Origin: a virus
Taxonomy: Duplodnaviria > Caudoviricetes
Reading direction: 5' to 3' (one strand)
Virus record (IMG/VR): IMGVR_UViG_3300021400_001341
Coordinates: 1-64,000 of that record
DNA length: 64,000 nt
Under the pieces are notes generated by a model that was not told the DNA's origin, searched no databases, and saw nothing but the letters and a program-made list of their open reading frames with translations. Positions 2,704 to 47,375 of the stretch are shown here, piece by piece (positions within the stretch are counted from its first letter, which is position 1; each line of letters opens with the position of its first letter). Both the position numbers and the translations under genes were made by a program.

Positions 2704-2713
2704 GGTGATTTGA

Positions 2714-4381: not shown

Positions 4382-5947
4382 ATGGGTTTCTTCGATAGGT
4401 TCTTCAGAAGAACCACAACCGTGGTAGCGTCTCGTCCTGAGAAGAAAGACGTTTTTGTGGGGGCGTCAAACGACCGAGACGAACAAGCTATTCAAAGTTT
4501 CAGTAATGCTAATATTACTTTTTCCGGCGAACTGTCTGGTTATGACTATGGTTCCATTTTGAGAAATAAACAGGACAACATTCAAAGTCTGTACCAGCTC
4601 GCCGATTATTACTCTGATGCTGATCCAATTATTCGGGGCATAATAAAGCATGTATACGTTCCTTTCTCAACGTGCTCGCCGTGGTATTTAACCGGAGCCA
4701 AGAAAAAGACCTATGCTCTTTACGAGGAACAATACAAGCGTATGCGGCTCAGAGAAAAGATCGAAGGCATTATGCTTGAGATCTGGAAGTACAGTAATGT
4801 ATGTGTCTATCTTATGGACGGCAACATCATTACTCTTCCGGTCAACAAGTGGAGGATCGGTAATGTAACACTTAACGGTCAGCCAATTGTTGACTTTGAC
4901 TGTCAGTCCATTCTCAATGAGTGGCGCACTAAATCATACGACGTCAAAGAGAACTGGATTAAAGATAATCAGCTGGAAACTTATTTTAAAGGTTATCCAA
5001 AAGAAATTCAGGAAGCGCTCAACAAAGGTACCCAATATGCTCAACTTAATCCGGAAAATACGTTCGTTTTCCAGACGGCGAAAGAAAGCTGGCACAGGTA
5101 TGCCATTCCGTTTATTGCTTCCTGTCTTTCTGCTTTAGCAAAAAAAGAGCTGATCTCCAAATATGAAGACGCAACTCTTAACCTTGCTATCAGAAGTTTT
5201 GTTCATGTTCGTTATGGCGATGAAAAACAGAACGCCGATATTCTTCCCGATGAAACCGAATTAAGACAGGTTCGTAAGTTATTTCAGCAAGGCATGAGTG
5301 GGTTTCCGCTTGTTACCACAAACTATCTGGCCAAAGCAGAAGTTATTCAGCCTGATTTGAACGATTTGTTCCAATGGGACAAATACAAACAAGTGAATAA
5401 CGATATTCTGTCTGCCGGCGGCGTAAGCGGAGTTATTGTGTCTGGCGTGTCGGAAGACGGCTCCACTTTTGCTTCTGCCCAGGTTTCCATGGAAACTGTA
5501 GAAGCACGAATCAATGCCGTCAGAGACGAGTTCTGTGAAATGATGACACAGATCAACGCCAGACTCACAGAGTTTATGGACGGAACATACAACTTAAAAG
5601 ATGTTCCTGAATTCCATTTTGCTCCTCTTTCCATGGAAGGTAAAAAGGCTCTGAGAGAAAAATGCAGCGAGCTTTGGCAGAACGGCGTAGTGTCTACTCA
5701 GACAATGATGGAAGCCAACGGTTATTCCATTGACCGCGAGAAAGAACGCCGTGAGCAGGAACTGAAAGACGGAACCGACAAGACTTTTACCCCTCGTGCA
5801 ACAAAAGCTGCAACATCAGATTCAGAACAAAAACAAGGACGTCCAGAGTTGGACGACTCAGAGAGGACAAGTGACCCGGACGCTGCTCAGAGAGGCAAGC
5901 AGCCGAAGCCGTCCTCACCTGAAGGATCAATGGACGAATCCACATGA
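4382..5947 (+). CDS. portal protein
   Basis: 521 aa directly after TerL; MGFFDRFF N-terminus; C-terminal GRP motif in charged tail. Confidence 0.85.
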   Translation: MGFFDRFFRRTTTVVASRPEKKDVFVGASNDRDEQAIQSFSNANITFSGELSGYDYGSILRNKQDNIQSLYQLADYYSDADPIIRGIIKHVYVPFSTCSPWYLTGAKKKTYALYEEQYKRMRLREKIEGIMLEIWKYSNVCVYLMDGNIITLPVNKWRIGNVTLNGQPIVDFDCQSILNEWRTKSYDVKENWIKDNQLETYFKGYPKEIQEALNKGTQYAQLNPENTFVFQTAKESWHRYAIPFIASCLSALAKKELISKYEDATLNLAIRSFVHVRYGDEKQNADILPDETELRQVRKLFQQGMSGFPLVTTNYLAKAEVIQPDLNDLFQWDKYKQVNNDILSAGGVSGVIVSGVSEDGSTFASAQVSMETVEARINAVRDEFCEMMTQINARLTEFMDGTYNLKDVPEFHFAPLSMEGKKALREKCSELWQNGVVSTQTMMEANGYSIDREKERREQELKDGTDKTFTPRATKAATSDSEQKQGRPELDDSERTSDPDAAQRGKQPKPSSPEGSMDEST

Positions 5948-7964: not shown

Positions 7965-8960
7965 ATGGCTGATATTAAAGTTACCCGCGATAGCAAACTG
8001 ATTAAAGTGCTCGCGGCACAGGCCCGTAACGAACGGGTCGAATCTGACAAGGTCGAAGAGGCCGCTCAGATCATCAATGTTCTGGCTCAGGATCTGAATC
8101 CCCAGAACGCTCATGAAATCGCCCAGATCGTGGCTTACACGGTGGACGAGCTTCAGGCAAAGTCTCTGGATTTCCTCGGGCTGGTTGCTGATACCAAGAA
8201 TATTGGCTACGGCGACAAGGCTGCTTTCAAAGTTCGGACTGGCGGCATCAAGGCCTATATTCAGGCCAAGGGCGCTACCACCGCTCGCAGTTATGTTGCG
8301 GACAGCCAGATTCTGGTTGACACCAAGGAAATCTCTGCTCGTCCTGCGATCAACATTGTTGACCTGCGTGCCGGCCGTGTGAACATGGCCGACCTGATCC
8401 GTCAGGCCAACGCCGCTATGACCAACAAGAAGCTGGTTCTGATCGAGTCTGTCCTGCATGATGCGATTGACAACTTCGGCTCTCCTTTCTACGGCACCGG
8501 TACTGGTATCGTGAAGGCGACTCTGGATGCTCAGCTGAACTACTTCCGTCGGCTCGGTCCTGTCACCATTCTTGGCGACAATGCGGCTGTTGCCCAGCTG
8601 GCTCCTCTGACTGGCATGGCAATCAATGCTAATACCACTCAGTTCTCTGGCAACATGATCGATGAGAATAACAACAATGGCTTCATCGGCAAGTACAACG
8701 CCTGCGATGTTGTGGCCATGACCAACGCTTACGACGAAGGTGCTGTTACGCCTATCCTGGCTGAAGATTGGCTGTACATTCTGCCCGGCGGTGTGAGTGC
8801 TGACATGCGCAACCTGAAGGTTGTCAACGAAGGCCCCGTGAATGCGATGCCTTCTCAAAATATCGACGACATGGTTTACGAAGTGCGTCTGGATCAGTGG
8901 TTCGGCGCTGCGTTCGTCGTCGGCCAGAAGCCCAACATCGGAGCCTATTGCATTGGATAA
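7965..8960 (+). CDS. major capsid protein
   Basis: 331 aa; position; strong C-ending codon bias; RBS GGAGG; followed by a hairpin. Confidence 0.85.
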   Translation: MADIKVTRDSKLIKVLAAQARNERVESDKVEEAAQIINVLAQDLNPQNAHEIAQIVAYTVDELQAKSLDFLGLVADTKNIGYGDKAAFKVRTGGIKAYIQAKGATTARSYVADSQILVDTKEISARPAINIVDLRAGRVNMADLIRQANAAMTNKKLVLIESVLHDAIDNFGSPFYGTGTGIVKATLDAQLNYFRRLGPVTILGDNAAVAQLAPLTGMAINANTTQFSGNMIDENNNNGFIGKYNACDVVAMTNAYDEGAVTPILAEDWLYILPGGVSADMRNLKVVNEGPVNAMPSQNIDDMVYEVRLDQWFGAAFVVGQKPNIGAYCIG

Positions 8961-12088: not shown

Positions 12089-12175
12089 AGGCTTCTTTGT
12101 GTTATCAACACTTAGATGCTTGTAGGAGGGCTGACAAGTTTTGATATAAATCTATACGAAAGAGGTCGATCAACT

Positions 12176-12964
12176 ATGGCGACTTACGTTGAAAAATTCG
12201 CTGGCTATATTGCCGACGTGCCGCGGCTGTGGTTCAAACGTTGCGATGGTAGGATCTTCTACTTCGACGAGCTGACTGCCGCTACCGTTACCCCTCAGAT
12301 CAACTACACTGAAGTGAACGCTGGCTGGTCCCTGTTCCCCGTGGCTTATCTGCCCGGACAGTCCACCTTTGAAATGCAGATCACTTCCGGTAAGTTCGAG
12401 GCTGATCTGTTCGTTATGACCAATGCCACTAAGTTCAGCTCCAATAGTTCCTTCCGGATGATGCATACTGAAACTCTGGATGTCGACGGCCAGAACCAAG
12501 TGGAACTGAGCCATACCCCGATCACCGGGACCATCTCTATCCCCTATCCGAACGAACGGGGTATGATGGAAGAGACTGCCCAGACCGTGTCTGCCGGCAA
12601 GTTCTCTGTTGCTACGACTGGTGACATTACCAAGCTGACCTTTGCTACCGGCGATGTTGGCGCTAAGGTGACTGTCTCCTACTACTACATTGACGAAGTT
12701 GAAGAAGCTCGTATCGACAATCGTAGCTCCGCCATGGGCGAAGCCATCATGCAGTATCCTGTGTATGGCAACGGTGACGATTGCACCGATGCTTCCATCA
12801 TCGGCTATGTTACCGTTAAGGTGTTCAAGTGCCGTGTGACCGCGCAGCCCGGTTTCGATGCCAGCTATAAGACAGCGTCCACGTTCCAGTTCACCCTGGC
12901 GGCCATGGATGCTAAGGAGTCCGACGAGGCTGCTTACTCCATCAGCTACAAGAAGGTTGCTTAA
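12176..12964 (+). CDS. major tail tube protein
   Basis: Start MATYVE behind GAGG; high-expression codon bias; C-terminal STFQFTLAAMD; followed by a strong terminator. Confidence 0.8.
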   Translation: MATYVEKFAGYIADVPRLWFKRCDGRIFYFDELTAATVTPQINYTEVNAGWSLFPVAYLPGQSTFEMQITSGKFEADLFVMTNATKFSSNSSFRMMHTETLDVDGQNQVELSHTPITGTISIPYPNERGMMEETAQTVSAGKFSVATTGDITKLTFATGDVGAKVTVSYYYIDEVEEARIDNRSSAMGEAIMQYPVYGNGDDCTDASIIGYVTVKVFKCRVTAQPGFDASYKTASTFQFTLAAMDAKESDEAAYSISYKKVA

Positions 12965-15595: not shown

Positions 15596-18500
15596 ATGGA
15601 TTCTGAAATTTTAACTTTACAAGTGGATATTAACGACGACCCAATGAATCAGAAGGTCGATGCTATAGAAGAAAGATTATCCACACTTCAAAAGGACGCA
15701 AAGCAGGTCGCTAAAGACGTTACGCCCTCAACAGAGTCTCTGCCCGGCTACAATGATGCCTTCATAAGAAAACTTGCTGACTGGGAAAAAAGTTTGACAG
15801 ATATTGGTCGTACTCGCAGTTCAATGGAACACGCTATGAGTTCTTATGAGCAAAAGGATCTCAGTACGTCTTATAAGCGCAAAGTCGAAATAGCTAATAG
15901 ATCAATTAAAGATCTTGCAAACTCTCAGACGCTTGTTTCAGAACTTCTCAATTCGTTTGGCCCTGGTATGAGCCAAGTTTTCAGCAAGGGACTTGAAGGT
16001 ATTGTTTCCCAGTTATCCACAGGCATCAAGACAACTGCGATGAGCATCTCAAGCGAAGTGTCCCGGAAGCTTACAGACGATGAAATTGTTGATCGCTACA
16101 TGCGGTCTGGAGAATATGGACGAATTGTTCAGAAGCTCAATAAAACGCATCCGAATGCTTCGAAAGTGTATACTCCTCAAAATATGAGGCAATATCTCAT
16201 GGCTAATGTGCCGATGAGCGTGCCTCAGTATATGAGAGAAGCTATCACCGGAGGATCTCAGGTTCCAATCTTAAAGCAGCCTGAATCCTATCGTGAAATG
16301 CTCCCAAAATCTTTCCAGAAGATCGAACCGCACGCGGAGCGTGGACAAATTCGTCAGCTTGGACAGATTTCTCACGCAAATGAAACTTTATCTACTGATG
16401 AAATTTCCGCTCTTGGTCGTATTGTTCGCAACAATCGTTACGCGGCAGATGCTGCTGTAAAAGCTGGTATCATTTCCAAATCCGGACAGAAGATCTATTT
16501 CAACCATGCAGCCAATCACGATATGATGGATGCAATGGCCGGATTTATCATGGACGATATGACCCGTGCAGCGCAAGGTGAAAGAAAGTACGGTATCGAC
16601 AACGTTGAGAATCCAAACTTCTGGAAAAACATTTCAAACAAGCGCGGCAGCAATAAAGTTTTCGATGGAACACTTGCGGCTGCCTACGCAATGCATGATG
16701 CATTCGGGTCTTGGCTAAACCCCGGAAGGTTCGGAACTGGATTTATGCCATTCAGCGCAGCATCAGGAAACGCTGAATATCTTGGACGCATTAATCATTC
16801 TCCAAGAAAAACTTCGAGAGCGTTCGCAGAATATACTCTCGACATGATGCAAAATGGTGCTCAAATTTCTGGTATGCACCCTATCGTTCAGGACAAGAAC
16901 GGTAGATGGACAGAACTTTCTCGTATAAACGGTCCTGTTTCTGCTAAAAACAGTCCTACAGGAAAATCAATTACACCTGATGATTTTCATACCATCAGCA
17001 TGAACGACAGCCTTCTTTATAAGATGGTCATGTCATCTCCTAATGCAAAGCGTGTAGGACAAAACGGATTCAGTGACAATATGTTCTATCTGAAATTTTC
17101 AGATGAACTTGGCGATCCTGGACTTACTAAAGAACGTCGGGCTGAACTTCAACAGCAGTATGCAGATCTGTTCAGAAATGGATATAAGGTAAACGGTGAA
17201 GATTATATCCGTACAAGAATCAGTAAGACTCATGCTGAATTCATGAAGGCTGCTATTGTTGACGATATCGGCCGCAAAGCTCTTGGAATGGAATACGCCA
17301 GGCCGGGAGATCAGCCGCTTGATGAAGCTACGGCTGCTAAAGTTCGTAAAGCAGGTTTAGACGCTTTATCAAACGGAGGATATTCGAACGGACATAGTGG
17401 CCATTTTGACACATTCAAACCTTTTGCAAAAACCATGTATAATCAGAACAACATGGCGACAGAAGGTGAAAGTCTGGCCACATGGCTTGGAACTACATTT
17501 GGGTTTAGAGGAAATGACACAACGGCAAAGATGATTCGCCAAGGAATGGGCGAAAATGAACGTCAACGCATTATGGAGGACTTCGGAACTCCTAATATGA
17601 AAGTTGTTGTTGGTAGTTTCGGAAAAGCCGACATGGACGGTTCTAACTGGATTTCAGACCGTATCAGCAGTAAAGGATTCCAAGGAAGAACATTCAATGG
17701 CAAAGCAACCTATGTGCCCATCAACATGATGGACATGAGAGCGAGGAATTTTCAACAGATTGAAATGACCGAAGAGGCTCAGCGACGAGTTGCGGAAATT
17801 AATGCCCAGGCTCAGAAAGATATTGAAGAGGCCAACAGAACTTTAAGCGGGAAAAAGCTTGCGAAAAGGCTTAACAGCATTGAGTCTCATAGAGCTAAAA
17901 ACGAAGCATATGCCGTTGCTCAGCTTGGCGGAGATTGGATTATTCCTGGAGCCGGAATTAACGGCAATGATCTTCGTGTATCAAAAGACACAGATGTTAT
18001 TGAAGATGTAAATAACATAAAAAACTTTAAGACTCATTTGCAAGACGACGTAAAATCTGGCAAGATCACTCAGGAACAAATGAATGAAATGCGTTCAAGA
18101 GATTATAGCCGTGATGAAATTTTTGCAAAAACGACATATGATGACGCCAACACATCTTCTCGTTGGCTTTCAAAGCAAGTTATTAACTCTTCTATGAACG
18201 CAGGATTCAGAGATCCTCGCGTTCAACAGTATTTCAATAAAGTGTTCTTCGACGAGCTTGCTAGAATGGACGATGATCAATACGTCAGAGATCTTCTGTT
18301 TAAAGGAGATCAAAGTGTAGATCTTCAATCCGAAAAAGCTCAGAAAACTATAAGTGATCATATTGCCGGCATGTGGGCGCAATATAACGAAGGCGATAGG
18401 TTGCTGCCTACAGGCGCATTTAAGTTCGCAATGGCTGCGCCTAACCCGCAAAGCGTTATCAACAATCGTTTAAAAGCTGCTGGAATTGCGCTTACGCCTG

Positions 18501-21500
18501 AGCAAAACGCTCTCGAGCTTGGGAATAACCAGGTTATTTCCATGGAGTCATTAAACAAACAATTAGGTATTATTCGTTTCCCTGCTACAAAAACCGGTAA
18601 TGTAACAGTAAATAACGTGTCTGCTGAACAGCTTATTAAAAACGGAGGAGCAACAAAAAGCCAGATTGAAAGACTTGCGAAGTCTTCTGGCATTGTAGAC
18701 ACGAAAGGACTTTATTTTGCTCCGGATTCTCCAATCCTTAAGCTGCTGCAGGGTGAAGACTTCGATGGAGACTTGAACGGATATTTCGGACTTTCTGATA
18801 ATATGAATCCGAAAGAAGCCAAAGAGTTCTCCGAAGCCATGCGAATTATCGGAAATGCTTCTGATAAAGAAGTTGAACAAATCTGGGGAGCAAAACCTGG
18901 CACTCCTGAATTTGAAGCGGCGTGGAAGAAACAAGAAGCGAGAAAAGAAGCGCAAACACGTCAGTCTGTCGCAAAAGTTGGCGGATACGATCTGTCCAAT
19001 CCTGATGATGCAGCAGCTTATCTTGTGAACGTTCCTCGTGAACATGCTATGATGGGTGCAGCTGAACGTTCAGCTGATATGGCTGCTTTATACTACGCAG
19101 GATTAAACGATCCTAAAATACGAGGAAATCTTGCTCAAGCCATTAAAGACTATGAATCTCAATACGATGTCGTTTCGACAAATATGAAAACTGATGAGAG
19201 CTGGAAAAGAACCAATGAACAAGCCTATGCAGCTGATCGAGGTCTTTCTTTCTCCCGGATGTTTAAATATGCAAACGATGCTATTCAGACAACAGGCGAA
19301 AATGATGAGTCCGTAAGGATATGGAATGGCAAATCTCAAGAATATCTACGTGATAAAAACGTAGATCAGCTTGGCTTACCGTCTTTGTTCCAAGGTTCAA
19401 TTATGGGAACATTGATGGGCCGGATGAAATCTCGCCAACAAGGAATAGATCCTGAAGGTGGCATTTACAATTGGGACCAAGTGCTTGATGCTGTGAAACT
19501 TCCGGAAGGCGTTTCTGCTGATTCTGAACAAGGTAAGTTTGTTCAGATGATGAGAGGAGTTCGCAAAGGTTTTCTTGAATCGAAATATCTTGTTGCAAGC
19601 AATCAGACGGTTGATGCGCTTCAAGCGCAGTACGAAAAAGCCGTAGGTGAAATTGAGAGTTCTATTGATCCAACTTCTCCTGAAGGCAGAGCGTTGAAAA
19701 AAGAAAGGCTTAAAGCTATCGGAGCACAGGCCTTTGATAACTTTAAGCAGTATGGCGCAACGGAAAGAAATCTTGCGAATGCTACTTGGGCTCAAGCATC
19801 TCTTGATGATTTTGCCAAACAGAATGGTGTTTCTGTAGACCAGCTTGTTGGCAATGCAAGTTTCGTTGCCGGCGTTCAAGCTGCTGTACAGGCTTCTGAG
19901 CCGGAGAAAACATTCCAGCGTCCTGAGGCCGTTAAGAACGCAACTGTAACGACTTCGAAAACGCTTCCTGAGGAAGCAAGAGCTCCTTTTGAACAGAAAA
20001 CAGCTCAGGAAATGCTTGCGCAGGAAACGCCTCAACAGCAAGCTAAAAGGTTGCTCAAGGAAGCTGGTGTCCGCAATAGAGATACTATTCTCGATGCGAA
20101 TCAAAGAGACGCTCTTGTTTCAGCTATAGCCAATAATGATTTAGCCGCGTTAATAGAGCTAAATGGAGTTGGAAAGAAGAATGCACCTAAGATTATGGCT
20201 GCTCTACAAGGAAGCAGTCTCTTAGGGCTAAAAACGACATCTCCTGAAGAAATGCAGAAAGCGGTTGCAACTGCGACTGCTCCCTCTGTTGCTCCAAAGG
20301 CACAGCCAGAACCTGAACTTGTATGTGGAGTTTGTGGAACAACGTATCCTGCTTCTATGGGACATTGCCCAAACGAAGCAAATCATCCAAACAAGAAAAA
20401 GCAGACAAAAGGTGAAAAGCAACAAACGCCTACACAACCAACTACTCCACCTCCAACTACTCCATCTCCAACTACTCCAGCTCAACCTCAGGCTCAATCT
20501 CCATCTCCTTATGGTGGAACTACTCCTTCGTGGGGTGGAAATAATCCACCTCCTGGTGGGCCTCCTAATAATCCGCCTTCCGGCGGGCCTCTAAGCCCTT
20601 CGTCCGGCGGAAACTCATGGGACGCCCAGGCTGCTCAAGCTTATTATGGGCAACTCATGGGAAGAGCTCAGGAGTTCTCTGGAAAACTGTTCGGAGAAAT
20701 TTTAAACTATGAACAGCAGAACAAAGGAGAATTTGATTCAATCATTAAAGCTAATCGTAACGATGCAATTGCAGCTCGATACGAACAGCAAATCAGAGAC
20801 TTCCAAGCTTCTGCTGATTATCAATATCTTACAGATGACCAAAAGAGAAATATGGACAATCTTATTTCGCCAAGAAATGGTCTTGTCGCAAAGGCAGGAA
20901 GAGATTTCAGCGAAATGTCCATGTTCTCTACTTCACAACTTCTCGAAAACATCGGGAACGCAGAGCAGAAAGCATCTGGAACATATGACGCTCAAGTTGA
21001 AGCTTTAAATAAATGGGATGAAAAAATAAAAGAAGTTGAAGCTGATCAAAAGCGTCTACTGGAAATGTCCAGCGATCCTAAATACTCTAAAGACCTTCAG
21101 GATCAATTCAAGAAAAGCGCTGATAAAATCGGTGAAGATCTTACATCCATTAATCGTTCTCGTCAGAACATTGAAATTTCAATGCAAGATCAGAACCAGA
21201 AAACCTTTGATAAACAGATTGAAAATCTTGAAAACAAGCGGCATCCTGGTAATAAATATGAACAACAGTCTCGTCAATATCAGCAACAAATATCTGATAT
21301 TCGTGACAACTTAACAAGCAAACATAATGCCGGGCTTATCTCAGACGATGCTTTTAATAAAGATATGGGTCGTCTGAAAGATCTTGAAAAACAAACTTCT
21401 GTAAGCGCATTGTCTATGCAAGACGCGTTTAAATCAATTGGAACTTCGCTCACAAAGTCTTTAACAAATCTTGCTAGTCGGTTTGGTCGTCAGCTTTTCC

Positions 21501-24500
21501 AAAAAGCATTGACCGAAGCAAAGAAATTTGTACAAGAATTCGATAAGACAATGACGTCTATTCAGATGATTACTTTGAAATCCGATGAACAGATGTCTAC
21601 ACTTGGAGACAGTCTAATTGCTAAAGCTAAAGAACTGAAAATCTCTGTAGCTGAAATAACGCAGTCTGCTGAAACGCTTTATCGTCAGGGCTTATCCGAC
21701 GAAGAAGTTGACGAACGACTGGATGTTATTTCGAAATTCTCTAAAGTTTCCGGCACAAAGGTTGACGCTGCAACCAAGTTGATTACGGTTGCAATGAACA
21801 CAGGTCTTGTTACAGACCCACGGATTGCTGCAGATGTTGTTACTGCGCTTGGCGACAACGCCGCAACAAACGCCTCAGAAATCGAGAAAGGTATTGAAAA
21901 GGCTGGTGCCGCAGCTGCTGCAGATGGAACAACATTTGCTCAGCTTGCTTCAATGCTGACTGCGATTACATCTACAACACAGATTGGCGGAAATGTAGCA
22001 GGTCGTACACTTAACACTATATTCGGCAGAATGAACAAGATAGGCACAAACGAGCTTATCTATGATGAAAACGGAAATGCTATTTCCGGATCTGATGTAT
22101 CAAAACTTCTTGCTGCTCAAGGAATTCGCACTTATGATGAAAAAGGAAATAAACGTTCATCCTATGATGTTCTGTACGACTTGTCACAAGTTTGGGATTC
22201 TCTTGAAGACGCAACTCAGCAACAGCTTGCTTCTCAGATAGCAGGAACTCGCCAGTACTCTAACTTTGCCGCAATTATGCAGGGTATGTCAGAAGGCAAA
22301 GTCAGTGAGTATATGTCTTTATCAGAAAATGCAGAAGGTATTACAGATCAGAAATATGAGATTTATACTAAAAGTTTACAAGCTTCTCTGACTGATCTTA
22401 AAAATACTTTTGACGCTCTTGTTGAAGACCTTGTTGATAAAGGTTATGTTCAGGATTTTATTTCCGGCATAACAACAATGATTAATGGTGTAGATAATCT
22501 GGTAAACGCCTTAGGCGGATTACAAATGGCTCTGCCTCTCGTGATGACCCTTGTCGGGGCTTTAAACGGCCTTAAGTTTGGAGGAGTCGGAGCTCTTGTT
22601 GGTGCTGCCATCGGTCTTGGCTCCTATGCGGGACTTACGGCTCTTGGACAAGGCGACAACAATGTCGACTTTGAACAGATCGCCATTGACGGACATAAGA
22701 AACAGACAGAAACAGCAAGATCCAATCTTGAAAAGGCTCAGAATATGTATGAGTCTTACAAGAACGGAAGACTATCTGAAGAAGAGGTATCTACATTTGA
22801 TAAGCTTTTATCAGACATTGATGTTTCTATTTCAGGAGCTTTCTCTGAAGCTGAAAGAGCTGCTCTTGGGTTAAGCGGAACATTCGAAAATGTCAGCGAT
22901 AAGCTTGACGCTTATGCTGCAGCAATCGAAGCTAAAGCTAAGAAGGAAACAGAGCAAGAATTTAGAAAATACACCAGCGTAGACCTATCTGATTTGATTG
23001 CGTCACGATATGAAAACGGTGACGGAAGAACATACACCGAAGACGAAAAAGCGTTTTATGACTATATAACCGAACATTACGCAGACGACGGGACGATCGG
23101 ATGGGGCCACAACGGAGTTGAAGATTACGTTCGGGATATTGTTTCCCGTGGGTTATCAAGTGATGGCAGTGTTAGCCCAGGATATTTTCTCGATGTTTAT
23201 AGAGACAGAATAAATGAATGGGTCAAACAAGGCAAATTCATCCAAGCGTATAAGAAAGAAGGAGATGAATATACTCCAATTCCTTATACGGACATCCAAG
23301 ATTTGTATAGAGATCTTGCTACTTATGACTTTGTTGACGAAAATGGAGTTGAAACTCAAGCTGGTAGCAACGTAAAAAAGCTGTTTGAATTGATTATGAC
23401 GTCTGGCGGCGATGCTGGCTTCAATGAAAACATGGAAAGCCAGGAAGCTTTTGCCAGAGATATTGTTTCTACTACCTATGGTGAAAGGCTTAAAACTTCT
23501 TTATCTAAGCTTGGTTATGTAGATGACAATCTTGCATCTCTTGTAACTGATGCGTATATCGATTCCGTAATGCAGGGCGTCCGCGGTCAAATAATAGAAT
23601 CGAATGCAATTGGTAGAGAGCCTGACATACCCGGAGCGATTGCAGACGAGTCTAAACGCATTTTTGGCAATATGTACGACTTCCTTCAGGCCGACAACCC
23701 TTTAAACGCGTTCCAAAATTACGTTATTGAATCAAAGAAACAAGATACGGAGTTCTTAGAGGAACACGCGGAAGAACTTAAAGGGCTAAACGATGAGGGA
23801 ATGTCTGCTGCTATCAGAGGAATTCTTTTCCCGACGGTTCCTGCTCTTAAAGAGGAAGAAGTTCAAGAGATAGCTCAGGATGTTCTTCATGCTGGCGCTG
23901 CGACAGGATATTCTACTTGGAGTACGGATAAATCTAATGCATATGGATTAGCCGCTGACGCAATGCTTCGTAATTTTGAATCTGCCGGTGTTTCAGACGC
24001 AGTATCACTTCGTGCTTACTTGCAAACAACGGACGGAAGAGACTGGAAATATTTAACGCAAAACAACGGAGAACTTGCTCAGCTTGTAAACTCTATACAA
24101 TACGACGAAGACGGAAATATCATTAATCCTGATGTCTATAATCAGATTATTGATACTTTATATGCAAACAGCAAAGCTCGTGGTGCTCGCTTTGTTCCTG
24201 AACAGGAAAAAGCCGAAAAAGCTCAGTCCATGCTTACTTCTATCGCCGAAGGCGAAGTTGGATATCTTTCTTGGGATGATGCCTTAGCCGCGGCAGAAGC
24301 AGAAGAACAAGCAAACAGAGATACATATGAAGCATCAATTCAAGAAGCACTAACCAGAACCAGAGAGAAATACAAAGAAACTCAATCGCCTGAAGAACTT
24401 GAAAAAGGAATGGCTCGTTATGAAGAGTTGTATCGTGAGAACAATCCTTATACCGGTCAAACCGCAGAGCAGATTGCTGCTGGATACCGTATTTATACGG

Positions 24501-27500
24501 CAGACGAACAGAAGTATCTTAAAGAAACTGTTGGAGAAGAGTTATACGACAGATTAACCGGCAAAAATGGACAGACCGCATCGATTGAAGAACAGGCTTA
24601 TGCGCAAACTTTAGTTAACAACAAGAGATATGGTATTTCCGGATTAACATCACGTCAGCAACTTGAGGGAATGCATGATGTCCAGAGGATCATATCTGAA
24701 GGTAGTTTAGCAAACTATAGCGAACCGGTTGCAAATGCGTATATGGCTCAATTTGCCGGATGGGGCGAATATTCTTCTTTAATCAAACGTCAACAAGCAG
24801 GAGAAATACTTAGTCCGGAAGAACAAAAACAGCTTGAAACACTTCAACAGAACTTTGATAACATTGTACAAAGCGCTCAGATTAAAGTAGATATTGAAGG
24901 AGTTCAGCAGCTTGAATCAGCCGGAAAAGTAGCCGAAGGAACTGCTGCTAAGCTCGAGAAACTTCAAAAAGACGGCCATATCGCTATTGAAGTGGAAACA
25001 TCTCTTAAGACAGAAGCTTTCGATCAGGCACAGCAAAACGCTAAACTCGTTAACGGTACACAAACAGAACGCGACGAAGTTGCCATGGCTCTTCTTGGCA
25101 TGTCTCGCGAGCAATATTACGCAAATCGTAACGATAACTATCAACTTGCATTGAACACACAGTCCGCTCGAAATACTCTTAATGGTAATACATGGGCTGA
25201 ATTGTATAATGCTGACGGTTTAACTGATGAGCAGCGTGCTGCTATAGATGCAGCTGCTCGCGCTGCTGGATATCGTGCAATCGAATCTGATGTTTATTAC
25301 GATGATACCGGTCGCCATTCTACCCGTGGATACGAATATGCCAATGAAGGCAGCGTGGAACACGTTGGCAGATATGTTGGCACTGAACGTACTCGTACAG
25401 AGTCTGAACTAACAGCTGCAAGGCTTCGAATTGTTAATGGTACTCTTACTGCAGAAAGCGATAATGAACTTTACAACGCCGCGGTTGGTGGACTTGGTAC
25501 ATATGGTCAGAAAGTTCTGTGGGCTCGTGAGAACGGAACATACAACGAGTTAGACGAAGAAACAAAACGACTTGCTCGTCAGGAAGCGGAACAAGCTGCT
25601 AAAGACGCTCGTGAAGCGGAAATGCTTGAAAGAGCCAGGCTTAGTTCTCAAACTGCTGGCGGTGCGTTTGCCTATCAACAAGTTCAATACGAACAGAATA
25701 ATAAAGCGGCTCTAGCTGCCGAAGCTATCTTTGGTTCTCTTACGCCAAACAAAGTAAAGAACTGGGATGACTTGATGAACTCCGTTAATGGTTCTCAGGC
25801 ATCCAACTGGAAAGAACTAATTAACTCTTCGGCGGATTTGTCTAAGAAGCTATCTGACATGGGCGTAACCGTTGACGATGCAGGGCAGCTTGACTTTTCT
25901 GAAGTTGAAGCGTCTGGTTACGAATTAGCTGATGTTCTAAACATTCTTCGTCAGGCAGCATCCGATGCTTCTGACAGTCTTAACGGGTTTAAAGAAGTGT
26001 TGTCCACTGGTGAATCTGCTGCTCGCGCTCAAGCTTATTTCAACGGAGAATTTGACGCCGAGAACAAAAATCGTGAGGCATTTGCTTCTTACATCGACAA
26101 CCAGCAGATAGCGGATATCGTTCAGAATAACGAATTAGCTTATCGTGCTCAGCAAGAAGAATATGACGAATACATGTCTCTTAGCGCTCGAGACCGTATA
26201 ACGTGGCGTGAGAATCATGGATATCGTCCTACGAAGCCAAACGAGTATGATCCGTTTGCCGGACTTGAAGGAGAAAACCTTCTGTATGCTCAGAGTTTAT
26301 ATGCTAATGCTGCATACGGTAATCCGGCTCTTTCTGAAGTTGAAAGAATTAATGGATTTAACATGTTATTTGGTTCGGCTCGCAATGGCACAATAGGCGA
26401 ACTTCGTAATGCTGACAGGGTTGGATACTATCAGGACTATGTTGGCGCTGTATCTGGCGGAGATGAATATCTCCGTATGATAGAGCAAATACAAGAATAC
26501 GAATCCAGCTCTGGTGTTAAAGTAAACCTTAATGATTATGATCAGCTTTCTAAAGCCTTTGGAGGCTCTAGAGATGAAGCTTCTCGCTTCTTACAGGTTC
26601 AAAAAGACGTTAGAGCAGAACTTGCCGGGGCATCTGCGAGGGCAACAAAGAAAGCCGGAGAATATACAGACGCATATGCTGATTCTCTGTCCAGGCTTAA
26701 TAAAGGCGGCGTAACCGCACGTAAAGAAATGGCTCGTCTTACAGACGAGATGAAAGATTATCAGGACGGAATAACTGCAGCGCAACAATCAAAAGGCAAA
26801 ACTGGTAAACAGATTGTTAAAGATAAGACTGCTGTAAAGATGTTTAATCAATATCTTGGGTTTGATGAAGACGACATTAGAACCTGGGGTAAAGATGAAG
26901 CAGCAAGAATGTCTGATCTACTCAACGACACTGTTCAAGAACAGTTTTCTGAAGAGAATTTCAGATCTATGCTGCAAGGCGCTTTTGATGACATTAGTGC
27001 TTCTGTTGGCGGAGATCCGATTGAGATTGATAAAATTATTGATCTGATCGTAAATCCACAAACTGGAAACATCGATTATTCAGCGTTTGTTGCACTTCTC
27101 CAGTCTATCGATTCTGATTATGCGGCAATAGCAGAAGAGTATTCTGGACACCTGCTTGATTGGTTTATTACTATTTCTAAGATAATGAATGGTGACAGCG
27201 CCTCTGTATCTGTTGATAGATCCGTTGGCAAACTTAAATCTGGTAGCGGCAAGAGCCCGTATAACAAACGTTCATCTGGTGGAGGTGGCGGTGGAAAATC
27301 CAAAACCGACGCCATCATTGAAGGCCAGAGCCATTACATTAAGCGTCGTGAACACGATGTTACCATGGCTCAAGAGCGTGAAACTCGCTATGAGAAAGTT
27401 AACAACTATCAAGGATATTTAAACGCTCTTAACGATGAAATTGCTGCTCAGGAAAGATTGAAGAGTCAATATAGTGCAAATATTACCGCTCTGACAGAAC

Positions 27501-30500
27501 AGTTATCTACTTTGAAAGAAGGCACTGAAGAGTGGTATAAATGTCAAGAAGCTATTGATTCTGCTGAAGAATCAATGGCAAAAATTGATAACGAAATTGA
27601 CTCTATCAACTCTAAAAAGATTAACATCACAGAAACTAAACAAGCGAACCAAGATAAACCTATCTCTCATGCTTCGACGATGTTGCAGCTTAAAGCGGAA
27701 AACTACCTCGAACAAGGACAATTTGAAAAATATGAAGCTGTAACAAGAGCTCAAATTGCAAATTATGCAAATGATATTTCAGTCAACAATCAGCAGATTG
27801 CTGAATGGGAAGAACTTCTTGCCACATACGAAGAAGGAAGCTCTGATTGGATTACTGTGAGAGATAAGATTTGGGAAATTAAAGAACAAAATGCTGAACT
27901 TGAGAATGATATGCTCAAGGAAACGCATGCGCTTGAACAAGCTAAGATTTCTCAAATTGCAACAGATCTTCAGAATGCGCTTGCTCCTCTCGAGCATGAA
28001 CAAAACATGCTCGACACATGGGGCAACATTTATCAAAACGATCGACAGTATGGTGCATATCGCGGAGCTCTCTCTGCGCAAAGCGAGTTGAACCGCGGCA
28101 GAGCTGAGTTCTACCAAAGCTCTATTAATGAACTTCAAGCTCAGATGAAAACGCTCGAAGAAGGATCTCAGGCATGGCTTGATGCCAGGTCGGCGATCTA
28201 CGAGTATCAGGAAGCTCTGGCTCAGGTTACTGCTTCTATCCAAGAAAACGATACGGCCATTGAAGAGTCTTATGTGTCCGAGCTTACAAATCGTTATGAA
28301 GACGCTTCAAGAACTGCTGAGCATGAACTTAAGATGGTTCAAACTATGGCCGCTAGATACAAAGAAGAAGGCGACTATACAAATTACGAGCATATGCTTG
28401 AAGCTCAGCGCGATCTCATGGGTAATCAACTTGCGGTCCAAAGGAACAGCCTTGCCGAGATGGAGGCACTGTTTAACAGTGGAAAGTTGCGTGAAGGCTC
28501 TGAACAGTGGAGAGTTCTGAGGGAACAGATTATGTCTCTTCGGGAGACTGTTCTTGCAACCGAAAACGATTATGCTTCCTTGGTAAGAGAGGTTCGGTTG
28601 ACCAAGTTTGAAAACACTGTCGAACAATTTAACACTAAAGATAATGAAGTTCAGCATGAACTCAGAATGATTCAGTACGATGAAACAAGATATCAGAACG
28701 CTGGAGAACTTACCAATTACGGTAAAGCTCTCGAATGGGATAACGCCGCGCAACAGCGCAGGGCCGATCTTATTCAGGAACAGATCGATCTGCTTAAAGA
28801 GCAGAGAGATGCCGCAAGAGATGATCCGCAGCTGTATAACAAGATCGATGCTGAAATCATGAAGATGGAAGAACAGCTGGCTTCAACAAATAACACTATT
28901 GAGAAGAATAACAAACTAATTGAGAAGAACCAGGATGCCATTCGTAAACTGCAACAGAATATAGAGAACACTTTGGATAAAGAAATCAAAGCTCGTAAAA
29001 AGTTTGAAAGAGATATGCTTGCTGGCACGATTGCTACTCAGAGCAGCATGCTCGAAGTAATTAAGAAGCGTTATACGGACGAGTTCAATCTTGTTAAAAA
29101 GGATATCGAGAATAAAAAGAAAGCTCTGAACCAAGAGAAGTCTCTTATCAATGAGCGTCTTAATGCTCGTAAAAGGGCGATTGATGCAGAAGATAAGTAT
29201 GAGACTCTTGCGGAATATCAGAAACAGCTTGCTATTATTTCTGCTGATCCTACTCGATCCAAGGACGCTAAAGAGCTTCGTAGAAAGATCGCAGACCTTC
29301 AGAAAGAAATTTCTTGGAGTATTATCACAGAAGATCAGGCAAAAGCCGAAACAGAAGCGATTGACGATCAGATTAAAGCGCTCGACGATGAGGTGCAGGT
29401 ACGAACTGAAGATTTAAATGAGATGCTTGAAGATTCAAGAAACTTTGCTGACGAGTTGAACAAGATCATGGGTGGTTCCTATGAAGATTACGTATCTTGG
29501 ATGAAAGAAAATTCTGAATCATATAAGAACGCTACAGATGAAACTCGTAAACAAATGGAACTTGGATGGCATGATACATGGCTCAAGATGAAAGGCGAAA
29601 CCGAAACTTACTGGGAAGAAGTAGCGGCTTTCATGCAGAATAAGGATGACTTCCTTAACTTTATGAAGCAGTCGCAAGAGTATATCAACGCTTCTGACGT
29701 TGGTAAGATCAGTCTCGAACGTCAATGGTCTGAAATGTATGATGACTATCAGGCATCGCTTGTTGATAACGCAGAATTCTATGACAATCACGAAGTTCTT
29801 GAGAAAATGTCCGAAATGAAAGACTGGACCTACAAGGTTGAACCTATTGTAGACCCGACCTATAATTACGGACAATACTCAACAGGTCTTGAATATTTGT
29901 GGTATAGAGATAAAGACAACACAGCTGGTGTCGCACAGGCTGCTATTGATCAGGCTTATGATCAGTACAGTTCTATTGTCGGCAGCGAAGCAAGTCTCTA
30001 TGAGTCTCAAAGAAAGAAAGAAGAAGAATCCAGCGTTCCTCAGATTACAATTAATGTATCTGGCGGAAGCAGTAGTGGAGGAACAACGACTACTACTACT
30101 CCAACAACTACGGATACTGATAAATATTTTGAAGTGTATGACGAACGTGGAATCAGAACAAACTATGTTATCAACGCAAAAGATAAGAGTGCTGCGAAAA
30201 CAAAGTTGAAGAGCACGCTTGGAGATAAATATTACTCAGTAAGCGGATCTGGAATGGACACTAAGCCGACATGGGCTACAAAGGTATATAAACATGGCGG
30301 GCTTATTGACTTTACTGGCCCTGCGTGGGTCGATGGGACAAAGCTTGAACCTGAAGGAATTCTGTCTGCTTACGACACGAAGGCAATTCAGGCTCTTACT
30401 GATGTGCTCGACCGTGTTTATGTTGCTCCAGGCTATGCTCCTTCTTCCGAATACTTCACGAGAGGCAACACAAATATTGGAGACATTAATGTCACTATCA

Positions 30501-30616
30501 ATCAAGCCGAACTTAAAGACGATGCCGACTTTAATGATGTTGCCCGTCGCGTTGGAAAAGTCATCACAAAGCAACTCAATAAAGAAGGTTTCAATTTAGG
30601 ACGGTACGCATTTTAA
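15596..30616 (+). CDS. giant tape measure protein carrying an N-terminal DPBB RNA polymerase-like domain
   Basis: TP901-type TMP core (EFDKTMTSIQ...LYRQGL, about 21530-22300), hydrophobic segments about 22510-22650, long coiled coils and a HGGLIDFTGPAWVDG C-terminal motif; RNAP motifs including DFDGD at 18758-18772; lies between chaperone and Dit. Confidence 0.9.
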   Translation: MDSEILTLQVDINDDPMNQKVDAIEERLSTLQKDAKQVAKDVTPSTESLPGYNDAFIRKLADWEKSLTDIGRTRSSMEHAMSSYEQKDLSTSYKRKVEIANRSIKDLANSQTLVSELLNSFGPGMSQVFSKGLEGIVSQLSTGIKTTAMSISSEVSRKLTDDEIVDRYMRSGEYGRIVQKLNKTHPNASKVYTPQNMRQYLMANVPMSVPQYMREAITGGSQVPILKQPESYREMLPKSFQKIEPHAERGQIRQLGQISHANETLSTDEISALGRIVRNNRYAADAAVKAGIISKSGQKIYFNHAANHDMMDAMAGFIMDDMTRAAQGERKYGIDNVENPNFWKNISNKRGSNKVFDGTLAAAYAMHDAFGSWLNPGRFGTGFMPFSAASGNAEYLGRINHSPRKTSRAFAEYTLDMMQNGAQISGMHPIVQDKNGRWTELSRINGPVSAKNSPTGKSITPDDFHTISMNDSLLYKMVMSSPNAKRVGQNGFSDNMFYLKFSDELGDPGLTKERRAELQQQYADLFRNGYKVNGEDYIRTRISKTHAEFMKAAIVDDIGRKALGMEYARPGDQPLDEATAAKVRKAGLDALSNGGYSNGHSGHFDTFKPFAKTMYNQNNMATEGESLATWLGTTFGFRGNDTTAKMIRQGMGENERQRIMEDFGTPNMKVVVGSFGKADMDGSNWISDRISSKGFQGRTFNGKATYVPINMMDMRARNFQQIEMTEEAQRRVAEINAQAQKDIEEANRTLSGKKLAKRLNSIESHRAKNEAYAVAQLGGDWIIPGAGINGNDLRVSKDTDVIEDVNNIKNFKTHLQDDVKSGKITQEQMNEMRSRDYSRDEIFAKTTYDDANTSSRWLSKQVINSSMNAGFRDPRVQQYFNKVFFDELARMDDDQYVRDLLFKGDQSVDLQSEKAQKTISDHIAGMWAQYNEGDRLLPTGAFKFAMAAPNPQSVINNRLKAAGIALTPEQNALELGNNQVISMESLNKQLGIIRFPATKTGNVTVNNVSAEQLIKNGGATKSQIERLAKSSGIVDTKGLYFAPDSPILKLLQGEDFDGDLNGYFGLSDNMNPKEAKEFSEAMRIIGNASDKEVEQIWGAKPGTPEFEAAWKKQEARKEAQTRQSVAKVGGYDLSNPDDAAAYLVNVPREHAMMGAAERSADMAALYYAGLNDPKIRGNLAQAIKDYESQYDVVSTNMKTDESWKRTNEQAYAADRGLSFSRMFKYANDAIQTTGENDESVRIWNGKSQEYLRDKNVDQLGLPSLFQGSIMGTLMGRMKSRQQGIDPEGGIYNWDQVLDAVKLPEGVSADSEQGKFVQMMRGVRKGFLESKYLVASNQTVDALQAQYEKAVGEIESSIDPTSPEGRALKKERLKAIGAQAFDNFKQYGATERNLANATWAQASLDDFAKQNGVSVDQLVGNASFVAGVQAAVQASEPEKTFQRPEAVKNATVTTSKTLPEEARAPFEQKTAQEMLAQETPQQQAKRLLKEAGVRNRDTILDANQRDALVSAIANNDLAALIELNGVGKKNAPKIMAALQGSSLLGLKTTSPEEMQKAVATATAPSVAPKAQPEPELVCGVCGTTYPASMGHCPNEANHPNKKKQTKGEKQQTPTQPTTPPPTTPSPTTPAQPQAQSPSPYGGTTPSWGGNNPPPGGPPNNPPSGGPLSPSSGGNSWDAQAAQAYYGQLMGRAQEFSGKLFGEILNYEQQNKGEFDSIIKANRNDAIAARYEQQIRDFQASADYQYLTDDQKRNMDNLISPRNGLVAKAGRDFSEMSMFSTSQLLENIGNAEQKASGTYDAQVEALNKWDEKIKEVEADQKRLLEMSSDPKYSKDLQDQFKKSADKIGEDLTSINRSRQNIEISMQDQNQKTFDKQIENLENKRHPGNKYEQQSRQYQQQISDIRDNLTSKHNAGLISDDAFNKDMGRLKDLEKQTSVSALSMQDAFKSIGTSLTKSLTNLASRFGRQLFQKALTEAKKFVQEFDKTMTSIQMITLKSDEQMSTLGDSLIAKAKELKISVAEITQSAETLYRQGLSDEEVDERLDVISKFSKVSGTKVDAATKLITVAMNTGLVTDPRIAADVVTALGDNAATNASEIEKGIEKAGAAAAADGTTFAQLASMLTAITSTTQIGGNVAGRTLNTIFGRMNKIGTNELIYDENGNAISGSDVSKLLAAQGIRTYDEKGNKRSSYDVLYDLSQVWDSLEDATQQQLASQIAGTRQYSNFAAIMQGMSEGKVSEYMSLSENAEGITDQKYEIYTKSLQASLTDLKNTFDALVEDLVDKGYVQDFISGITTMINGVDNLVNALGGLQMALPLVMTLVGALNGLKFGGVGALVGAAIGLGSYAGLTALGQGDNNVDFEQIAIDGHKKQTETARSNLEKAQNMYESYKNGRLSEEEVSTFDKLLSDIDVSISGAFSEAERAALGLSGTFENVSDKLDAYAAAIEAKAKKETEQEFRKYTSVDLSDLIASRYENGDGRTYTEDEKAFYDYITEHYADDGTIGWGHNGVEDYVRDIVSRGLSSDGSVSPGYFLDVYRDRINEWVKQGKFIQAYKKEGDEYTPIPYTDIQDLYRDLATYDFVDENGVETQAGSNVKKLFELIMTSGGDAGFNENMESQEAFARDIVSTTYGERLKTSLSKLGYVDDNLASLVTDAYIDSVMQGVRGQIIESNAIGREPDIPGAIADESKRIFGNMYDFLQADNPLNAFQNYVIESKKQDTEFLEEHAEELKGLNDEGMSAAIRGILFPTVPALKEEEVQEIAQDVLHAGAATGYSTWSTDKSNAYGLAADAMLRNFESAGVSDAVSLRAYLQTTDGRDWKYLTQNNGELAQLVNSIQYDEDGNIINPDVYNQIIDTLYANSKARGARFVPEQEKAEKAQSMLTSIAEGEVGYLSWDDALAAAEAEEQANRDTYEASIQEALTRTREKYKETQSPEELEKGMARYEELYRENNPYTGQTAEQIAAGYRIYTADEQKYLKETVGEELYDRLTGKNGQTASIEEQAYAQTLVNNKRYGISGLTSRQQLEGMHDVQRIISEGSLANYSEPVANAYMAQFAGWGEYSSLIKRQQAGEILSPEEQKQLETLQQNFDNIVQSAQIKVDIEGVQQLESAGKVAEGTAAKLEKLQKDGHIAIEVETSLKTEAFDQAQQNAKLVNGTQTERDEVAMALLGMSREQYYANRNDNYQLALNTQSARNTLNGNTWAELYNADGLTDEQRAAIDAAARAAGYRAIESDVYYDDTGRHSTRGYEYANEGSVEHVGRYVGTERTRTESELTAARLRIVNGTLTAESDNELYNAAVGGLGTYGQKVLWARENGTYNELDEETKRLARQEAEQAAKDAREAEMLERARLSSQTAGGAFAYQQVQYEQNNKAALAAEAIFGSLTPNKVKNWDDLMNSVNGSQASNWKELINSSADLSKKLSDMGVTVDDAGQLDFSEVEASGYELADVLNILRQAASDASDSLNGFKEVLSTGESAARAQAYFNGEFDAENKNREAFASYIDNQQIADIVQNNELAYRAQQEEYDEYMSLSARDRITWRENHGYRPTKPNEYDPFAGLEGENLLYAQSLYANAAYGNPALSEVERINGFNMLFGSARNGTIGELRNADRVGYYQDYVGAVSGGDEYLRMIEQIQEYESSSGVKVNLNDYDQLSKAFGGSRDEASRFLQVQKDVRAELAGASARATKKAGEYTDAYADSLSRLNKGGVTARKEMARLTDEMKDYQDGITAAQQSKGKTGKQIVKDKTAVKMFNQYLGFDEDDIRTWGKDEAARMSDLLNDTVQEQFSEENFRSMLQGAFDDISASVGGDPIEIDKIIDLIVNPQTGNIDYSAFVALLQSIDSDYAAIAEEYSGHLLDWFITISKIMNGDSASVSVDRSVGKLKSGSGKSPYNKRSSGGGGGGKSKTDAIIEGQSHYIKRREHDVTMAQERETRYEKVNNYQGYLNALNDEIAAQERLKSQYSANITALTEQLSTLKEGTEEWYKCQEAIDSAEESMAKIDNEIDSINSKKINITETKQANQDKPISHASTMLQLKAENYLEQGQFEKYEAVTRAQIANYANDISVNNQQIAEWEELLATYEEGSSDWITVRDKIWEIKEQNAELENDMLKETHALEQAKISQIATDLQNALAPLEHEQNMLDTWGNIYQNDRQYGAYRGALSAQSELNRGRAEFYQSSINELQAQMKTLEEGSQAWLDARSAIYEYQEALAQVTASIQENDTAIEESYVSELTNRYEDASRTAEHELKMVQTMAARYKEEGDYTNYEHMLEAQRDLMGNQLAVQRNSLAEMEALFNSGKLREGSEQWRVLREQIMSLRETVLATENDYASLVREVRLTKFENTVEQFNTKDNEVQHELRMIQYDETRYQNAGELTNYGKALEWDNAAQQRRADLIQEQIDLLKEQRDAARDDPQLYNKIDAEIMKMEEQLASTNNTIEKNNKLIEKNQDAIRKLQQNIENTLDKEIKARKKFERDMLAGTIATQSSMLEVIKKRYTDEFNLVKKDIENKKKALNQEKSLINERLNARKRAIDAEDKYETLAEYQKQLAIISADPTRSKDAKELRRKIADLQKEISWSIITEDQAKAETEAIDDQIKALDDEVQVRTEDLNEMLEDSRNFADELNKIMGGSYEDYVSWMKENSESYKNATDETRKQMELGWHDTWLKMKGETETYWEEVAAFMQNKDDFLNFMKQSQEYINASDVGKISLERQWSEMYDDYQASLVDNAEFYDNHEVLEKMSEMKDWTYKVEPIVDPTYNYGQYSTGLEYLWYRDKDNTAGVAQAAIDQAYDQYSSIVGSEASLYESQRKKEEESSVPQITINVSGGSSSGGTTTTTTPTTTDTDKYFEVYDERGIRTNYVINAKDKSAAKTKLKSTLGDKYYSVSGSGMDTKPTWATKVYKHGGLIDFTGPAWVDGTKLEPEGILSAYDTKAIQALTDVLDRVYVAPGYAPSSEYFTRGNTNIGDINVTINQAELKDDADFNDVARRVGKVITKQLNKEGFNLGRYAF

Positions 30617-30673: not shown

Positions 30674-31762
30674 GTGAATACCTTGACCGGTGGGTTTTCT
30701 TTCTGTGACACAGATATAGGTTCCCTTGGGCTATATTATGTACCTGAACTCGAAGATACGTTTGTTTATAAGCCTGCAGACGCAGAGAGCCATATTGAAA
30801 CGTTTGAAGGACATGACGGCGGTTACTTTTACGGTTCTTGGTATTCTCCCAAAGAATTTACTCTGAGATGTTATTTCGAAGACTCTAAAATTGATAGAGG
30901 TATTATGGCTCATGTGTACGCCTTGTTTAAAGTCGGCAGGTCTGGAAAACTTATTTTCGACAGGCGTCCATGGTGTTATTACGATGCCACGGTTACAGAC
31001 CCAGTTGAATCTGATTTCAAAAATTATGAAAACGGTCTTGTTACAATACACATGAAAGCCATGTATCCGTTTGCAAGATCTGAGATCATAACAAACACAA
31101 GATCAGAACAATATCACGACGTTCTTATGTCCAACTCTGCTGTGTTCGATAAAGAAGGAATGGATCTTCAGCAGGAATTTACAAACCTTCAATCTGATCA
31201 TGCAAATCCTATTCCGATTGTATTATGCAATCCAGGGCAAGAAACGGCCCATTTAGGCGTTTCTATTGCCGGGGATGTAGGAGAAGGCATTGTGATTACA
31301 AATGCCACTACAGGACAATCTATGCGTCTTGTAGCCATATCTAAAGCCGTGACAACAGACGTTGGAAAAAAAGTTTATATAGACGCAATTAGCGGCAAGA
31401 CGATTCTTACAGGCGGTGGCCAAACACAGATTAAATTTTTGTATCACGATTACGGATTTTTAAGTCTTGCTTCCTCATATCCAGCGCTAAGAGATATTTA
31501 TATTAATTACATCGGAGGAAATACAATTACTGTTTTAAATATTTTGAATCAAAATGTTATTGGAAAATACATTTTCATCAAAGATAAGTGGATGAAAATA
31601 ACGTCTCAACCGGACAAACATACCGTAACAGTCAACGGAACAGTCATGTCTCCAGGAAGCGAAAGAACGATGATTATTCCAATGAATGAAATATATATTA
31701 CTCCTGATTCTACTATGGATATTACCAGTCTTAAATTTCTTTTTAAGCCGACATACGCGTGA
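30674..31762 (+). CDS. distal tail protein (Dit)
   Basis: Follows TMP; GFSF...LGL, G.DGGYFYG...PKEFTL, GKLIFD..PW.YY, MKAMYPFA motifs. Confidence 0.8.
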   Translation: MNTLTGGFSFCDTDIGSLGLYYVPELEDTFVYKPADAESHIETFEGHDGGYFYGSWYSPKEFTLRCYFEDSKIDRGIMAHVYALFKVGRSGKLIFDRRPWCYYDATVTDPVESDFKNYENGLVTIHMKAMYPFARSEIITNTRSEQYHDVLMSNSAVFDKEGMDLQQEFTNLQSDHANPIPIVLCNPGQETAHLGVSIAGDVGEGIVITNATTGQSMRLVAISKAVTTDVGKKVYIDAISGKTILTGGGQTQIKFLYHDYGFLSLASSYPALRDIYINYIGGNTITVLNILNQNVIGKYIFIKDKWMKITSQPDKHTVTVNGTVMSPGSERTMIIPMNEIYITPDSTMDITSLKFLFKPTYA

Positions 31763-46200: not shown

Positions 46201-46217
46201 TTGACGAGGTGAAAATA

Positions 46218-47360: not shown

Positions 47361-47375
47361 GGGCGGTGACGAATA

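Follow-up and report, generated by a model that had tools for sequence, protein, structure and literature searches.

The tape-measure protein (TMP) of an uncultured phage, represented by the IMG/VR record IMGVR_UViG_3300021400_001341, begins with a region predicted to be a two-barrel RNA polymerase (RNAP) with an intact active site. The window, that is, the whole stretch of DNA that was analysed, comprises positions 1 to 64,000 of this 108,026-bp record (42% GC). The polymerase domain and the tape measure belong to one polypeptide encoded at the TMP slot. It is quite probable that this N-terminal module is delivered by the tail and starts viral transcription, and that the fusion has an origin separate from that of gp96, the TMP-fused virion polymerase of Thermus phage P23-45. 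The layout of the fusion gene is as follows.

15596..30616, plus strand: RNAP-TMP fusion open reading frame (ORF), 5,006 aa, in the tape-measure slot
15596..16852, plus strand: N-terminal region, aa 1-419, with a helical bundle (aa ~20-155) and an alpha/beta part, kept across the family
16853..19465, plus strand: predicted core of the two-barrel single-chain RNAP, aa ~420-1290
20024..20218, plus strand: helix-hairpin-helix (HhH) module resembling RuvA domain II, aa ~1477-1541
20324-20368: CxxC...HC knuckle, 5' of the low-complexity linker
20354..20665, plus strand: low-complexity linker rich in P/T/S/G/Q (composition scan), aa 1587-1690, joining the polymerase module to the TMP
20939..25174, plus strand: tape-measure core, with PF10145 and TMP PHROGs

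The polymerase module thus takes up about the first 1,600 residues of the TMP, in the order N-terminal head (1-419), catalytic core (420-1290), helical region, HhH module, and the linker follows. The AlphaFold2 (AF2) model of aa 420-1600, built on an alignment of 22 sequences, has pLDDT 82 and pTM 0.76. Its single chain contains two double-psi beta-barrel domains, of which the beta-like one precedes the beta'-like one. In a Foldseek search of PDB down to E 0.1, all 28 top matches are two-barrel single-chain RNAPs, among them QDE-1 (E 2e-7), RDR2 (1e-5), P23-45-type gp64 (2e-3), gp96 (0.026) and phi14:2 gp66 (0.098). The alignment covers model residues 1-870, corresponding to TMP aa 420-1290. 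In BFVD, a database of predicted viral structures, the best matches are phage proteins named 'RdRP' (E 2e-12 and 1.6e-7), together with P23-45 gp64. The nearest cluster in ESM Atlas is the RNA-dependent RNA polymerase (RdRP) family PF05183 from viral proteins (score 0.94). The two-barrel fold proposed in a first-pass annotation made from the DNA sequence is thus borne out by the model.

The N-terminal head is also predicted with confidence (pLDDT 84 for aa 1-419) as a helical bundle and an alpha/beta part. However, a fold search with aa 1-435 yielded generic helical-bundle matches only and was not informative. The RuvA-like HhH module is likely to bind DNA non-specifically. A simple pattern scan of the homologues did not find the CxxC...HC knuckle.

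The first-pass annotation listed six motifs, and all of them were found at the positions given there. It placed the polymerase at aa ~490-1290 and described it as embedded in the TMP; the domain is indeed part of the TMP, but it is N-terminal rather than mid-protein, and its core spans aa ~420-1290. The motifs, all on the plus strand, are the following.

17180-17206: GYKVNGEDY, aa 529-537
17636 (D681): MDGSNWIS, aa 680-687
17678-17707: FQGRTFNGKA, aa 695-704
17633..17707: motifs of the first (beta-like) barrel, D681-G682 and Q696-G697-R698...K703, fully or almost invariant across 35 sequences
18167-18184: LSKQVI, aa 858-863, with invariant Q861
18569..18583: IIRFP, aa 992-996, with invariant R994-x-P996 (R994 at 18575)
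18758-18772: DFDGD, aa 1055-1059, with D1055/D1057/D1059; metal-binding loop in the second (beta'-like) barrel

Conservation was assessed in an alignment of 35 homologous sequences with 23-77% identity. Twenty-two residues are invariant in all 35: N490, F610, G632, G682, Q696, G697, R698, K703, K809, Q861, F880, F902, G933, P938, R994, P996, N1007, D1035, P1043, D1055, D1057 and D1059. D681 is nearly so (over 90% of the sequences). These include the basic residues of the beta-like barrel, R698 and K703, and the whole DxDGD signature, whose loss in homologues would have spoken against the polymerase. DFDGD is the only D.DGD among the 5,006 residues, and in every full-length homologue a single DxDGD is found, at aa ~890-1180. 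A lone DxDGD is expected by chance in about one in 12 proteins of such size, as estimated from residue frequencies. However, chance occurrence of the motifs is excluded because the residues are invariant across the 35 sequences. R994-x-P996 sits 58 residues ahead of the DxDGD loop, so that the protein passes the filter [RK]xPx{20,100}DxDxD of Chaban et al., Supplementary Data 4 (PMC10770324).

The order of the motifs had been likened to that of YonO from phage SPbeta, and in profile alignments the likeness holds motif by motif. An hhalign comparison with SPbeta YonO gave E 1.6e-5 with probability 79% over 289 collinear columns, and comparisons with an alignment of 12 YonO-family members gave E 0.011 (497 columns) and 0.0013 (366 columns). 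The following residues are paired, the TMP residue being given first.

D681-G682 with YonO D249-G250
R698 with YonO R266
K703 with YonO K271
Q861 with YonO Q355
R994-x-P996 with YonO R492-x-P494
D1055-x-D-G-D with YonO D535-x-D-G-D

The paired residues are family-invariant on both sides, and the five catalytic motifs of the TMP domain align with the YonO-family invariants. Spacing in the first barrel is the same in the TMP domain and in YonO (17 residues from D to R and five from R to K). On the other hand, YonO is a free-standing, non-virion enzyme of 839 aa with matches to PF05183 and phrog_8308, whereas the TMP domain has no match above threshold to either family and is only marginally similar to YonO by profile (E 1e-3 to 1e-5). 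Because the profile statistics are weak, we place the TMP domain in the QDE-1/YonO-like clade and do not name it a member of the YonO family. The eukaryotic members of this clade that were matched, QDE-1 of Neurospora and plant RDR2, are RNA-dependent RNAPs of RNA silencing with ~10% identity to the TMP domain, and are not virion proteins.

The fusion is a property of a family. Two large searches yielded 18 and 33 proteins with this N-terminal region. Almost all of these homologues have 3,700-6,000 aa, contain PF10145 and carry the polymerase region at aa ~420-1550; a few short ones break off where the match ends and resemble truncated ORFs. In total, the fused architecture with PF10145 recurs on over 30 contigs from separate assemblies (ENA, JGI, NCBI, Logan), which shows that the ORF is not an assembly chimera. 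When close relatives of the TMP without a polymerase were sought, only probable fragments and distant ordinary TMPs came up. A tblastn search with the polymerase domain against 50,697 GenBank phage records gave no matches. Two scans of genome contigs yielded 97 loci with the pattern LQGxDFDGD, none of which is a relative by tblastn; most of them are FG-GAP-like DFDGDG repeats.

Two side observations concern relatives of this protein. The only hints of hosts are the labels of metagenome-assembled genomes (MAGs) carrying homologues, Paludibacteraceae and Riflebacteria. The top non-family match of the polymerase HMM (E 0.005, small database) is a 759-aa ORF at 472-2748 on the minus strand of L069 (MAG Anaerolineae, DATKWG010000012.1). 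It contains RWP...LQGADFDGD and may be another unannotated two-barrel polymerase.

The giant ORF is identified as the tape-measure protein by PF10145 and by matches of nine TMP PHROGs (aa ~1780-3190; best E 3.8e-33). By sequence, the tape measure is of the TP901/PF10145 type. It lies in the expected slot between the tail genes and the genes for the distal tail protein (Dit) and the tail-associated protein (Tal), and the gene order of the window is that of a classical long-tailed-phage structural module. The relevant features, with PHROG matches and gene order as context, are listed below.

2714-4360: TerL, large terminase
4382-5947: portal
7965-8960: major head protein
12116-12964: virion structural protein in the tail-tube position
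21626-22246: PF10145 PhageMin_Tail, aa 2011-2217 of the giant ORF (Pfam E 2.6e-23)
22520-22645: hydrophobic segment, aa 2309-2350, within the tape-measure core
30674-31762, plus strand: Dit, directly 3' of the TMP gene (PHROG 33 Dit, E 5.7e-18)
31781-37852, plus strand: Tal, 2,023 aa (PHROG 6211 minor tail, E 5.4e-22), followed by fibre proteins

The fibre-like proteins, at 38858-45243 and 46209-52778, are very large (454, 1,684, 383 and 1,800 aa). A PHROG search with the 454-, 1,684- and 383-aa proteins gave short tail-fibre matches, some of them to collagen-like minor tail families.

Outside the window, the genome encodes two standalone two-barrel RNAPs and thus three in all, counting the TMP domain. 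The genes concerned and some others of the same region are as follows.

Genome 87030-89849 (L007:3033-5849), minus strand: YonO homologue, 939 aa, DNDGD at 562, 32% identity to YonO over the full length (E 4e-136)
Genome 104770-107190 (L008:4773-7190), minus strand: YonO homologue, 806 aa, DYDGD at 459, 28% identity to YonO (E 3e-51)
Genome 90319-91458, minus strand: reverse transcriptase (PF00078), adjoining the 939-aa YonO-like gene
Genome 77767-80955, minus strand: replicase of the PolIII-alpha type
Genome 65124-66407, plus strand: tyrosine integrase

The 939- and 806-aa proteins match PF05183 (E 7e-9 and 4e-5, respectively) and phrog_8308 (8e-182 and 6e-79). The same set of three polymerases recurs in a complete, 150,780-bp phage related to this one. 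In possessing true YonO homologues, two in number, and PolIII-alpha, the phage resembles SPbeta. In a distant family member, the neighbouring genes have weak Pfam matches to YomX_C and YOMG_N, a hint that the lineage is remotely akin to SPbeta. The tyrosine integrase suggests a temperate lifestyle. No template/variable repeat pair was found near the reverse transcriptase gene. The record has a 107-bp terminal repeat that may reflect circular assembly only.

A long minus-strand gene train starts from the right end of the genome, with the 806-aa gene as its second ORF; on a circular map this gene lies just upstream of the terminase region. Downstream of the 806-aa gene there is a cluster of hairpin motifs on the minus strand, CCGGGCTAAAGCCC(T/G)G followed by (G/A)(G/T)TAC, in five sense-oriented copies (96363, 102552, 103499, 104057 and 104739; L007/L008). 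These CCGGGCTAAAGCCC hairpins could serve a phage polymerase as promoters or terminators. Another motif, ATTCGAGAAT...TATATAGGAAAG, occurs in three minus-strand copies at 89914, 101539 and 102001, one copy preceding the 939-aa YonO-like gene by 65-98 nt, and is a candidate phage promoter. An ORF-free AT-rich stretch at 100724-101175 (L008:724-1175) contains 30-bp tandem repeats (AAGATATATTTTTAGTTATTATACAGGAGG-like) and could represent an origin or an array of promoters. However, the candidate regulatory motifs of the right arm, the hairpin included, are not conserved in a relative with 55% identity, and therefore they were not assigned to the virion polymerase.

The first-pass annotation stated that no characterised TMP-RNAP fusion was known. 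This is out of date. The 5,002-aa gp96 of P23-45 is a TMP-fused two-barrel virion RNAP characterised by Chaban et al., Nat Commun 2024 (PMC10770324). Its active fragment is 327-1124, with DFDGD at 779-783 (crystal structures 8H2M/8H2N), and its shape is flat and clamp-less; it was found in virions as the full-length fusion, and it transcribes pre-early genes located at the first-entering end of the genome, including the gene of the non-virion RNAP gp64 (PMC10770324). The gp96 group includes P23-45, P74-26, G20c and TSP4 (Oshimavirus).

The two proteins share their design: each is ~5,000 aa long, is encoded in the tape-measure position of a long-tailed phage and has a single-chain two-barrel RNAP as its N-terminal part, in each the DFDGD loop has RxP ahead of it, and both genomes add one or more non-virion two-barrel RNAPs. 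One possibility, therefore, is that the fusion is the same ancient one and the TMP-RNAP a highly diverged orthologue of the Thermus-phage protein. We consider this unlikely. BLASTP of the two giant proteins gave no matches, in the RNAP or in the TMP part, and hhalign against gp96 or an alignment of gp96, stolb3 and TSP4 aligned no more than the DFDGD segment or else an irrelevant stretch (probability at most 4.6%). The rulers belong to different families, PF10145 without M23 here and Peptidase_M23 without PF10145 in gp96. DFDGD is at aa 1055 in one protein and at aa 779 in the other. Foldseek ranks QDE-1 five orders of magnitude above gp96, with RDR2 also above it, and the motifs are collinear with YonO and not with gp96. 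The partner RNAPs are of the YonO type here and of the gp64 type in P23-45. Further differences are the 42% GC and the integrase of the present genome and the additional RuvA-like HhH module of its TMP. Finally, tblastn of gp96 against GenBank phages found matches in Thermus phages only. Given the lack of detectable sequence similarity, the different ruler families and the restriction of gp96-like proteins in GenBank phages to Thermus phages, an origin of the fusion independent of gp96 is the most likely.

The phi14:2 gp66 protein of crAss-like phages (PDB 6VR4) and the virion RNAP (vRNAP) of phage N4 are similar in that the polymerase is part of a very large protein that is carried and injected. 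The former is likewise a two-barrel enzyme, but it is a weak Foldseek match (E 0.098) and has no tape-measure fusion. The N4 vRNAP has a T7-like fold and is unrelated to the two-barrel enzymes.

Several observations weigh against a tail-delivered polymerase that initiates viral transcription. Firstly, aa 1-1700 of the TMP have no match in Pfam (E <= 0.1), PHROG (E <= 0.01) or NCBIfam, and no polymerase match in PDB by phmmer or profile hmmsearch. The three hhalign runs with YonO, collinear through the catalytic motifs as they are, are weak (probabilities from 4 to 79%), and an HMM-to-sequence search was not significant. Secondly, the best structural matches, QDE-1 and RDR2, are RNA-dependent enzymes, which bears on the template preference. 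Thirdly, the linker could be a processing site that frees the polymerase before or after assembly. Finally, the phage has an integrase, and virion RNAPs are unusual in temperate phages.

The RNA-dependent structural matches in particular would fit a polymerase that is not an early-gene transcriptase and instead primes replication, copies single-stranded or RNA templates in the manner of QDE-1, or acts mainly in DNA entry, as a motor or an anchor. The attached HhH module, with its hint of non-specific DNA binding, would agree with such a role, as would the fact that no conserved promoter could be assigned. However, a PolIII-alpha replicase is already present in the genome. YonO and phi14:2 gp66 have reportedly proved to be DNA-dependent transcriptases when tested. 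The tested clade member with the same design, gp96, is a DNA-dependent transcriptase as well (PMC10770324). Thus a role other than early transcription seems quite improbable. The lack of direct sequence matches to curated RNAP families might also be taken to indicate an inactive relic, a purely structural N-terminal extension of the ruler, or an assembly or frameshift artefact, but this is scarcely credible: the ORF is a single open frame of 5,022 codons with no stops, the fusion is shared by dozens of independent contigs, and the invariance of the catalytic residues down to 23% identity largely refutes a decayed relic.

The preferred reading, a virion polymerase acting at the start of infection, can be outlined as follows. 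By analogy with gp96, the protein would be packaged as an intact fusion and would synthesize RNA on a DNA template, with early genes as its targets. In siphovirus tails the N-terminus of the TMP faces the head. The polymerase module would thus form the head-proximal end of the TMP in the assembled tail, and at infection it should be expelled last, after the ruler part, beside the leading end of the DNA. There it would transcribe the first-entering genes without the host RNAP. It may also help to pull the DNA in, as proposed for P23-45 gp96, and the HhH module may hold the DNA. Among the genes transcribed first there may be one for a YonO-like enzyme, which would carry the programme further. 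Provided that packaging begins close to the terminase genes and that the end packaged last enters first, the 806-aa gene would be one of the earliest to reach the cell, similar to the gene of gp64; the position of the gene on the circular map is what suggests this early entry. The standalone YonO-type pair would probably take over at later stages, resulting in a division of labour between virion and non-virion RNAPs.

A more specific scenario can be put forward only tentatively. In it, a convergent fusion of a YonO-related polymerase with a TP901-type ruler heads a cascade of three RNAPs, with the tail enzyme acting first, the 806-aa protein, whose gene lies beside the genome end, second and the 939-aa YonO orthologue third, and the phage, of an integrase-bearing SPbeta-like lineage, would be nearly independent of the host RNAP from the moment of DNA entry.

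This kind of fusion has been known since 2024, and the present family is a variant of its own, probably of independent origin, with YonO-type partners. The experimental record of TMP-fused virion polymerases is limited to one small group of Thermus phages. The family described here is represented by over 30 proteins from metagenomes, and neither its polymerase nor its ruler is related in sequence to that of gp96. This suggests repeated invention of the design, or else a far greater age and spread than assumed, and its presence in mesophilic phages too. The family would provide a second system for the questions of how a ~100-kDa enzyme passes through the tail tube and whether transcription is coupled to DNA entry. 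The combination of three two-barrel RNAPs with an integrase raises the question of how the choice between lysis and lysogeny works in a phage that brings its own transcription machinery.

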